Shown here: positions 30,755 through 32,713 of the stretch, piece by piece
Layout: each line of letters begins with the position of its first letter
How positions within the stretch are numbered: position 1 is the stretch's first letter
From: an uncultured Alphaproteobacteria bacterium
GTDB lineage: Bacteria; Pseudomonadota; Alphaproteobacteria; Sphingomonadales; Sphingomonadaceae
Assembly (NCBI GenBank): GCA_963754215.1
Contig: CAVWER010000003.1
Location: forward strand, 285,566 to 349,565
Direction of reading: 5' to 3'
DNA length: 64,000 nucleotides
The notes under the pieces: generated by a model
Seen by the model: only the letters and a program-made list of their open reading frames with translations
What the model was told of the DNA's origin: nothing
Databases searched by the model: none
Program-made: the position numbers and the translations under genes

Positions 30755-31364
30755 ATGTTCACCGGGATCGTCACCGACGTCGGAACCGTGACGAGCGCCG
30801 AGCAGCGCGGCGACCTGCGGCTGCAGATCGCGACCGGCTACGACCTCGATACGTCGATCTCGGCGCGTCGATCGCCTGCTCGGGCGTCTGCCTGACCGTG
30901 GTCGACAAGGGCGACGACTGGTTCGCGGTCGATGTTTCGGGCGAAACGCAGAGCCGCACGGCCGCAGGGCCTGTGGCGCGAAGGGGCCAAGCTCAACCTC
31001 GAGCGCTCGCTGCGCATGGGCGACGAGCTCGGCGGCCATATCGTGACCGGGCATGTCGATGCGGTCGGCGAGGTCGTCGAAGCGCGCGTCCGAGGGCGAT
31101 TCGGTCGCGAATCGGCGTCCGCGTGCCGAGCGAGCTCGGCGCCGATGATCGCGCCCAAGGGCTCGATCGCGCTCGACGGCGTGTCGCTGACGGTCAACGA
31201 GGTCGACGATCGCCGACGACGGAACGCGCTTCTCGGTCAACATCATCCCCCACACGGCGCAGCAGACGACCTTCGCCGAAATCGCCGCTGGACGACAGCT
31301 TAATGTCGAGGTCGACGTGCTCGCCCGCTATATCCAGCGGATGATTGCCGCTCGCGCACATTAG
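30755..31364 (+). CDS. ribE: Riboflavin synthase alpha chain (frameshifted)
   Basis: MFTGIV start, [45 protein letters not shown]. Confidence 0.92.
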
Positions 31365-31386
31365 GAACAGATTTGTTCCTTCTTTC

Positions 31387-31406
31387 TATCACATTGCAAT
31401 GTGATA
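31387..31406. promoter_or_regulatory. Perfect 20-bp palindrome, candidate operator
   Basis: TATCACATTG-CAATGTGATA in an AT-rich ribE-ribB gap, ending 11 bp before ATG 31418. Confidence 0.75.
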
Positions 31407-31417
31407 TATGAGCGCCA

Positions 31418-32713
31418 ATGAGCACCACCCTGATCGAGCAGCTGAAGCGCAATCATCGACACCGGCGAGATCAGCCGCGCCGGGCTCGCCCGCGCCGCCG
31501 GCCTTCATCCCAACAGCCTGCGCAAACTCGGCGCTGCCGACTGGAATCCGACCGCCGACACCCTGGGCCGGCTCGAAAAGCTGATCCAGCGCGGCGACGG
31601 CCGAGGTCCTGGTCGGCAGCCGAGGCGATCATCGACGAGGCGCGCAACGGGCGGATGTTCATCCTCGTCGACGACGAAGCGCGCGAAAATGAGGGCGACC
31701 TCGTCATCCCGGCGCAAATGGCGACGCCCGACGCGATCAACTTCATGGCCCGGCACGGCCGCGGCCTGATCTGCCTCGCGCTCGACCAAGGACCGCGCCG
31801 ACCAGCTCGGGCTCGAGCCGATGGCGCGCACCAACCGCAGCCGCAACGAGACCGCCTTCACCGTCTCGATCGAGGCCAAGGACGGGATTTCGACCGGAAT
31901 CAGCGCCGCCGACCGCGCGCGCACCATCGCCGTCGCGATCGATTCGGCCAACGGACCCGAAGCGCTCGTCTCGCCCGGCCACGTCTTCCCGCTCGTCGCG
32001 CGGCCCGGCGGCGTGCTGGTCCGCGCCGGCCACACCGAGGCCGCGGTCGACGTCGCGCGGCTCGCCGGTCTCAACCCCAGCGGCGTCATCTGCGAGATCA
32101 TGCGCGAGGACGGCGACCATGGCCCGGCTCGACGATCTGATGGATTTCGCCCGCGCCCACGGCCTCAAGATCGGCACCATCCGCGACCTCATCGCCTACC
32201 GGCTGAAGAAGGACCACATGGTCGAGCGGGTCGCGACCAGCGCCTTCACCGCGAGCAGCGGCGCGCAGTGGCAGGCGCAGGTGTTCCGCGACAAGGCGAG
32301 CGGCGAGGAGCAGCTGGCGCTGGTCCACGGCACGCTCGACCCGGCGCAGCCCGGTGCTGGTCCGGATGCACAGCCTCGACCTGTTCGCCGACGTGCTCGG
32401 CGAGGCCGGGCCGCGCTCGGGCGCTGCTCCAGGGCGCGATGCGCGATGATCGAGGAGGAAGGCTCGGGCGTCGTCGTCGCGCTCCACGCCGCGGCGCCGG
32501 GCTCGCTGTCGCGCGCGATCGACCTCGCGCTCGGGCAAGCCGGCCGAGGCCGGCGATGCGGTGCGCGGCTACGGCACCGGCGCGCAGATCCTCGCCGCGC
32601 TCGGCATCCACGACATGATCCTGCTTGACCAACACCCACCATTCGCCGGTCGCGCTGTCGGGCTACGGCCTGGCGATCGTCGAGGAGCGGCCGATCGAGC
32701 TGGCGGCAACTAG
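31418..32713 (+). CDS. ribB: HTH-RibB-degenerate GTP cyclohydrolase II fusion (RibBX type; frameshifted)
   Basis: Reconstructed N-terminus [20 protein letters not shown]...[11 protein letters not shown]; RibB motifs [49 protein letters not shown]-domain [10 protein letters not shown] lacks the Zn-binding cysteines. Confidence 0.88.

Follow-up and report, generated by a model that had tools for sequence, protein, structure and literature searches.

A probably captured Cro-type module on the riboflavin enzyme RibBX of sphingomonads: a candidate self-repressing enzyme

In the 64,000-nucleotide stretch of DNA analysed here (the window) and in most sampled genomes of its bacterial family, the riboflavin enzyme RibBX carries a Cro-type head behind a conserved palindrome, and we consider it highly probable that RibBX represses the promoter of its own ribBX-ribH genes, probably a leaderless one, by means of a promoter-operator-cro module captured from a phage. 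In the mechanism we propose, a prophage immunity region would have supplied an ancestor of the family with a promoter, operators and cro, joined to the 5' end of ribB, and the facing cI gene would have been lost. Transcription would start at the ATG, from a promoter whose -35/-10 spacer would be filled by the palindrome. RibB is a dimer, and the dimer would pair two heads, which would bind the palindrome; accumulating RibBX would then occupy the site, keep RNA polymerase off and shut off ribBX-ribH. The default input would be RibBX's own level (negative autoregulation), and a flavin or substrate gate may act on top of it.

The rib genes of the window lie on the forward strand in the order ribD-ribE-ribB-ribH. 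The riboflavin synthase alpha gene ribE (30755..31364, identified by Pfam Lum_binding and by tblastn with the protein of relative L003) is frameshifted in the assembly and ends in a TAG stop at 31362-31364, and the lumazine synthase gene ribH (32714..33137, forward strand, its end approximate, with a frameshift near 33080) starts directly after the ribBX stop. A ribH gene lay no more than 400 nt 3' of ribBX in 33 of 41 relatives, and from this arrangement ribBX and ribH are likely co-transcribed. Downstream of ribH we noted a terminator-like hairpin (33144-33164) sitting within a longer 29-nt inverted repeat (33140-33224, 83% complementary), which may be a small repeated element.

The reading frame of ribBX is broken in the assembly. 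The original prediction had restored it by removing three 1-bp indels, and three 1-bp insertions are indeed present in or beside the HTH region (about 31448, 31596 and 31619), but the gene as a whole has ten, all of them +1 insertions by comparison with the intact relative L005, and the same ten breaks appeared against all four relatives compared. In contigs of relatives from four public runs the base was absent at six of the ten insertion places, and by such comparisons the breaks are most likely assembly errors. It seems to us very improbable that the frameshifts are real and that the protein is not made in the window's genome: ten breaks in one gene would suit a pseudogene, and our search for public reads of the window's own strain found none (public RNA runs shared less than 0.1 of words), but every break is a +1 insertion, ribD, ribE and other neighbours shift frame in the same way, the relatives are intact, and the broken ribBX is the sole ribB locus matched in the genome. 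From 29786 to 35600 most genes of the window have at least one frame change, so domains are widely hidden from ORF lists there.

The extra N-terminal Cro/XRE-type HTH that had been proposed for ribB proved to be a real fusion in intact relatives. In the window this domain of about 60 residues spans 31418..31600 on the forward strand, interrupted by the insertions near 31448 and 31596, and is readable in frame +2 over 31449-31601. Scanning species genomes with the HTH piece gave at least 45 loci, those listed belonging to Sphingomicrobium, Sphingomonas, Sphingobium, Novosphingobium, Blastomonas, Qipengyuania and their kin. In all 45 listed loci the HTH and the first helix of RibB share one frame with no stop between them. 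Full-length proteins of 420-438 residues are encoded by 41; of the other four loci, two are cut off by the end of the contig and two have a break further along. After leaving out three of the full-length proteins, whose starts were uncertain, we aligned 38. The helix motif AAGLHxN(S/T)LR and the residues WNPT are invariant among the relatives, and conservation is 0.93 in the turn and recognition helix versus 0.88 in the enzyme, falling to 0.57 in helix 1 and 0.45 in the linker. A protein search returned 6196 matches among 7999 candidates scored, with a RibB domain in all 120 matches listed.

As anticipated, the head models as a lambda-repressor-like fold (pLDDT 90, with structural neighbours of that fold class). 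Its best neighbour was the MuB N-domain (Z 7.8), followed by the AcrIIA15 N-domain (6.8), with P22 c2, 434 and C-proteins also found; the Z scores of the top neighbours, 5-7.8, are middling. Foldseek placed P22 c2 and HipB at a probability of about 0.9, but with E>0.5, and gave no match for the head model at E<=0.001. On the model, the recognition helix expected as the third helix (residues about 30-38) was missing from the DSSP assignment, and a search of the HTH profile against solved structures by sequence returned chance matches only. When 51 heads were searched against Pfam at E<=0.05, 29 matched HTH_3 and 30 matched HTH_31 (best E-value 9.4e-6, mostly below cut-off); phrog_8 was matched by 21 of the 51, and the window's own HTH fragment reached E 0.082. 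Complex prediction of the full-length dimer scored 0.25 against a mark of 0.42.

By its sequence the window's enzyme is RibBX. The RibB (DHBP synthase) domain (31620..32200, forward strand) scored 228 bits against TIGR00506, for which the cut-off is 177, and its motif residues D84, D85, E89, E91, C118, T158, R165, H187, H204 and E225, which we take to be catalytic, are invariant in 38/38 relatives. The RibX domain that follows (32210..32713, forward strand) has a GTP cyclohydrolase II fold lacking the zinc cysteines, in agreement with what had been read from the sequence at the outset: [10 protein letters not shown] stands in place of HSEC...CDC, the loss of the zinc ligands being read from alignment to 4I14 and 2BZ0, and the domain scored 41 bits against the ribA model TIGR00505 (cut-off 206). 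A separate, intact ribA with HSECLTGD and CDC lies on the same contig (G000:C3:267160-267648); the protein of this gene (L046, G000:C3:267160) has a long N-terminal extension ahead of its GCH-II domain. The best structural matches of the full model were Mtb RibA2 and, second, the RibBX of A. baumannii (PDB 6MNZ), and invariant positions of the X domain include R314, H316, D323, R380, Y382 and N402. The Gln of the RDYGxGAQIL motif of the X domain (Q387), otherwise invariant, is replaced by Thr or Met in a single clade of the family (L056, L061-L064, L067-L069, L071, L084 and L085). We rejected this change as a mark of HTH loss, the clade containing both states, and among enzyme positions we found none that tracked HTH presence.

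The predicted operator upstream of ribBX is the perfect 20-bp palindrome at 31387..31406 (core CACA-N6-TGTG), which has 10-bp arms and, just as first described, is separated by 11 nt from the ATG at 31418. Of the window's perfect palindromes with arms of at least 7, 15 in all, it is the longest. CACA-N6-TGTG occurs no more than 95 nt upstream of the start in all 45 listed loci, where its flanks diverge; in 33 of them its first base is 28-31 nt from the ATG. TTG stands no more than 9 nt from the operator in 22/45 (the window has TTT), TA is found at the palindrome's right edge in 28/45, and a Shine-Dalgarno-like word was seen in 1/35 short-spaced versus 6/10 long-spaced loci. These counts and spacings fit a promoter made of a TTG -35, the palindrome as spacer, a TG-n-TA -10 and a start at the ATG. 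In the window this would comprise a weak -35 at 31383..31388 and an extended -10 without a -7T at 31402..31410, the latter placed from spacing and both on the forward strand, so that the palindrome would fill the spacer and transcription would probably start at about 31417-31418, i.e., at the ATG, giving a leaderless message. The conserved palindrome sits where the internal ribB-ribH promoter of the original prediction would be expected.

A strict sigma-70 scan, which demands the -7T, found no site; promoters lacking a -7T are described as common in this class in PMC7703639, whose supplements contain no row for the ribB start. For ribB of N. aromaticivorans a mapped start site (NC_007794.1:1639614) is given with a predicted -10 of 'caatgt' (PMC8407463, an entry of supplement 2). 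The same letters form the centre of the window's palindrome, and taken as a -10 they would sit eight bases upstream of the one predicted here.

The original prediction had also pointed to a second inverted repeat, GGAACA-N4-TGTTCC, which is present at 31364-31379 but does not belong to the conserved system. It forms part of a 7-bp hairpin followed by a T-rich run (31363..31380, forward strand, z -3.4), terminator-like and overlapping the ribE stop, that is broken in two of seven close relatives (L002 and L042) and absent outside the window's clade. We therefore rejected this clade-limited hairpin as a second operator. At its place most relatives have a second operator half-site: a TGTG upstream of the palindrome was found in 35/45 listed loci and is absent in the window.

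Homologues of the head outside ribB suggest where the module came from. Four matches fell outside the family, none at ribB: three were fusions of the head to CoaBC and one was a free 84-residue gene facing an HTH-S24 repressor. Viral and class-wide scans added further homologues, and a search at E<=1e-10 listed 459 clusters of them. Of the loci we examined 28, of which 3 were unparsed, 3 were coaBC and 22 were free-standing. In 21 of these 22 (18 from viral contigs and 3 from genomes) a palindrome, in most cases directly preceded by TTG, has its first base 29-33 nt from an ATG, the typical layout being TTG, an 18-bp palindrome and the ATG about 30 nt on. A divergent HTH gene accompanies 17 of the 21, and the two such partners tested each combined an HTH with an S24 peptidase. 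Three homologues with the helix HPNTL (L126, L127 and L129) show a TGTGA half-site, TTG, CACA-N6-TGTG and an ATG 30 nt on, almost letter for letter the layout of the rib loci. We set aside ON968454, the sole match in an annotated phage, which overlaps genes annotated on the other strand.

Among the free homologues, leaving out one with neither residue, base 3 of the right half-site was T in 11/12 with Asn in the helix and C in 8/8 with Thr or Ser. The Fisher p of 7e-5 for this link is overstated, as most of the Thr/Ser group belongs to one clade and the sites are also used by CI; by these sequences the link rests on few independent events, and the phage CI helix varies as well. The rib head has an invariant Asn, an invariant TGTG and no CI alongside. 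Phage-to-host transfer is the direction inferred from the greater diversity among phages and from the intact two-gene switch there; the HTH tree (56 columns) is poorly resolved and does not settle direction. The same Cro family is fused to CoaBC, of coenzyme A synthesis, in 3/38 sampled genomes of a sister family (L079:1519-2928, reverse strand, L080 and L082), and also in P0247. A hybrid site, CGCA-N6-TGTG, stands 30 nt before the ATG in L079, while the sites of L080 and L082 are degenerate, and this fusion is possibly a separate capture. In P0172 a Cro-type head is joined to a biotin-lipoyl (AccB-like) domain; this is a single record on a 2-kb contig and may be a chimera.

In line with the expectation that HTH and palindrome would co-occur among sphingomonad orthologs, the two were closely associated among 200 genomes sampled evenly from the order (106 from the window's family and 94 from sister families). 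The head was present in 94/106 family genomes, and the exact pattern TCACAY-N4-RTGTGA was found in 86/94 HTH-bearing genomes, mostly once per genome, versus 0/12 HTH-less ones; among the matches with listed positions, which were only some of them, most lie next to the head. Of the 8 HTH-bearing genomes lacking the exact pattern we inspected six, and these contained near matches. Beyond the family we found this head on RibB in none of 400 genomes of the class at E<=1e-5, and in 0/28 parsed ribB loci (of 30) from other Alphaproteobacteria. In the 12 HTH-less genes ribB adjoins the ribE stop, and in a quickly built 80-row tree of the enzyme portion the HTH-less proteins nest among HTH-bearing ones, with at least four label changes forced by strongly supported branches; the simplest reading of this tree is one early gain of the head followed by several losses. 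Since a single deletion can take out the adjoining head and site together, their joint loss carries less weight than it might seem to, and on these comparisons the strict conservation of head and site where they are kept is the stronger evidence.

These distributions also bear on whether RibBX is the protein that binds the palindrome. Another family-wide transcription factor could do so, with the RibBX HTH activating or doing something else, such as serving other DNA sites or a protein contact. The exact pattern does occur without the fusion in 21/94 sister-family genomes, and second sites turn up at unrelated genes in a few genomes of the family; yet a control pattern read backwards also matched many sister-family genomes, none of the 12 HTH-less family genomes has the site anywhere, phage homologues with the same helix stand behind the same sequence, and a site that fills the spacer fits repression. 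Moreover, a single strong site stands out in the window's genome at 70% completeness, scoring 34.7 bits, while the next scores 13.9 and the training minimum is 17.1. We consider a separate binding factor unlikely.

With one strong site in the genome, the regulon of a self-binding RibBX looks local. A rib regulon beyond ribBX-ribH was unsupported, since the second sites seen in six relatives were either within genes or next to genes with no relation to rib; among these, a location near enolase recurred, in G193 and G034 only. Two genomes of one genus have a second exact site roughly 2.6-2.8 kb 3' of ribB (L133:2571 and L134:2430), past ribH and an aldo-keto-reductase-like gene and near enolase.

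A passive relic would look similar in some respects. Here the phage promoter would have been kept as ribB needs one, the palindrome would be promoter sequence only and the HTH a tolerated passenger; the right half-site does double as the predicted extended -10, and the module has been lost several times without obvious harm. The left half-site CACA, however, lies in a spacer that is free to vary and is nonetheless invariant in 45/45 listed loci, and drift is seen in helix 1 and the linker but not in the recognition helix, which is invariant. A relic accordingly strikes us as even less likely than a separate factor, and repression by RibBX of its own promoter remains the reading we prefer.

Whether that repression would be gated is a separate matter. 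FMN, riboflavin, GTP or ribulose-5-phosphate on the X or RibB domain may alter the dimer state or the spacing of the heads, so that repression would track flavin supply and replace an FMN riboswitch, which would add a step to our preferred explanation. The absence of such a riboswitch, already noted from the letters of the window, held up: Rfam gave no match in the window, its genome (69.55% complete) yielded no FMN riboswitch, and the riboswitch was found in 0/56 family genomes versus 20/94 sister-family genomes. Gating also fits the invariance of the X-domain residues listed above. FMN reportedly interacts with the RibBX of A. baumannii. In Shewanella, RibX restrains RibB activity according to passages that cite the finding (PMC10012899; bioRxiv 2025.05.05.652280). 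Fusion of an HTH to a cofactor enzyme has, in addition, been repeated: besides the CoaBC proteins there is an ESM Atlas cluster of 469 residues with HTH_3 (88% of 52 members), RibB and GCH-II, commonest in Vulcanimicrobiota, another phylum, and likely an independent HTH-RibBA fusion. Such repetition suggests a gain from sensing.

Against gating, the HTH-less members also have no riboswitch where sampled, and a substitute is thus not required; the linker is variable; the X-domain invariants are kept equally in HTH-less proteins; and, as noted, no enzyme position follows the head, Q387 included. We regard a ligand-gated repressor as quite possible, if short of probable. More tentative still is a wider picture in which a domesticated phage switch, with the dead GCH-II domain as the flavin sensor that gates Cro, would be the family-wide substitute for the FMN riboswitch, and in which the capture of Cro, having recurred on CoaBC, would be a general route to trigger enzymes.

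A self-repressing RibBX would offer an answer to how vitamin B2 synthesis is controlled in a large and widely used family where no FMN riboswitch was found, and would give a direct handle on what the RibX domain does. Donor-like phage loci still exist, and they suggest that a single step can be enough to make an enzyme-repressor, the operator and promoter being brought along by the DNA-binding head. HTH-RibBX is present in cultured strains of Novosphingobium and Sphingobium (L015, L017, L024 and L032), and removing the brake may raise flavin output.

The database names of these proteins are only DHBP synthase or DHBP synthase/GTP cyclohydrolase II, and we found no description of an HTH-RibB fusion in full-text collections that take in few subscription journals, where RibBX as a word occurs in just five works, or in passages of two recent riboflavin reviews. 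The RibBX proteins of Shewanella, Aeromonas, Acinetobacter (6MNZ) and R. palustris likewise combine an active RibB with a zinc-less GCH-II-like domain beside a separate ribA; as far as the sources consulted describe them they have no DNA-binding head, whereas RibBX of the window's family has one. Like lambdoid Cro, the rib head is a small lambda-repressor-like HTH whose palindrome, at the level of sequence, lies over its own predicted promoter at the family spacing, and tandem sites occur in both, the second site at rib being a half-site in 35/45 listed relatives. The closest free homologues, Cro-type genes of phages or prophages, face an HTH-S24 repressor and have exact spacing in common with the rib loci; unlike a phage Cro, which stands alone and divergent from CI, the rib head is fused to a chromosomal enzyme, with ribE upstream and no facing cI.

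Among trigger enzymes, DNA binding by BirA, NadR and PutA is switched by ligand or redox state, and to our knowledge their heads did not come with a phage promoter. They join enzyme and repressor and act on genes of their pathway (PMC5397151), as is predicted for HTH-RibBX, which has an enzyme and a DNA-binding-type domain in one chain. The closest parallel in the riboflavin pathway is archaeal RbkR, an enzyme with a DNA-binding domain that controls rib genes without FMN riboswitches; PMC5397151 describes a CTP-dependent riboflavin kinase with a winged HTH and a multi-gene regulon, for which DNA binding and its release by FMN were shown. Here, by comparison, the enzyme is a DHBP synthase with a Cro/XRE head and one site per genome, predicted from sequence, and in place of a riboflavin kinase with a winged HTH, Pfam found only DHBP_synthase and GTP_cyclohydro2 in the aligned proteins (38/38). 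Enzyme-repressors are thus a known kind, and what is unusual in this one is its traceable, probable phage origin and its spread through a family.
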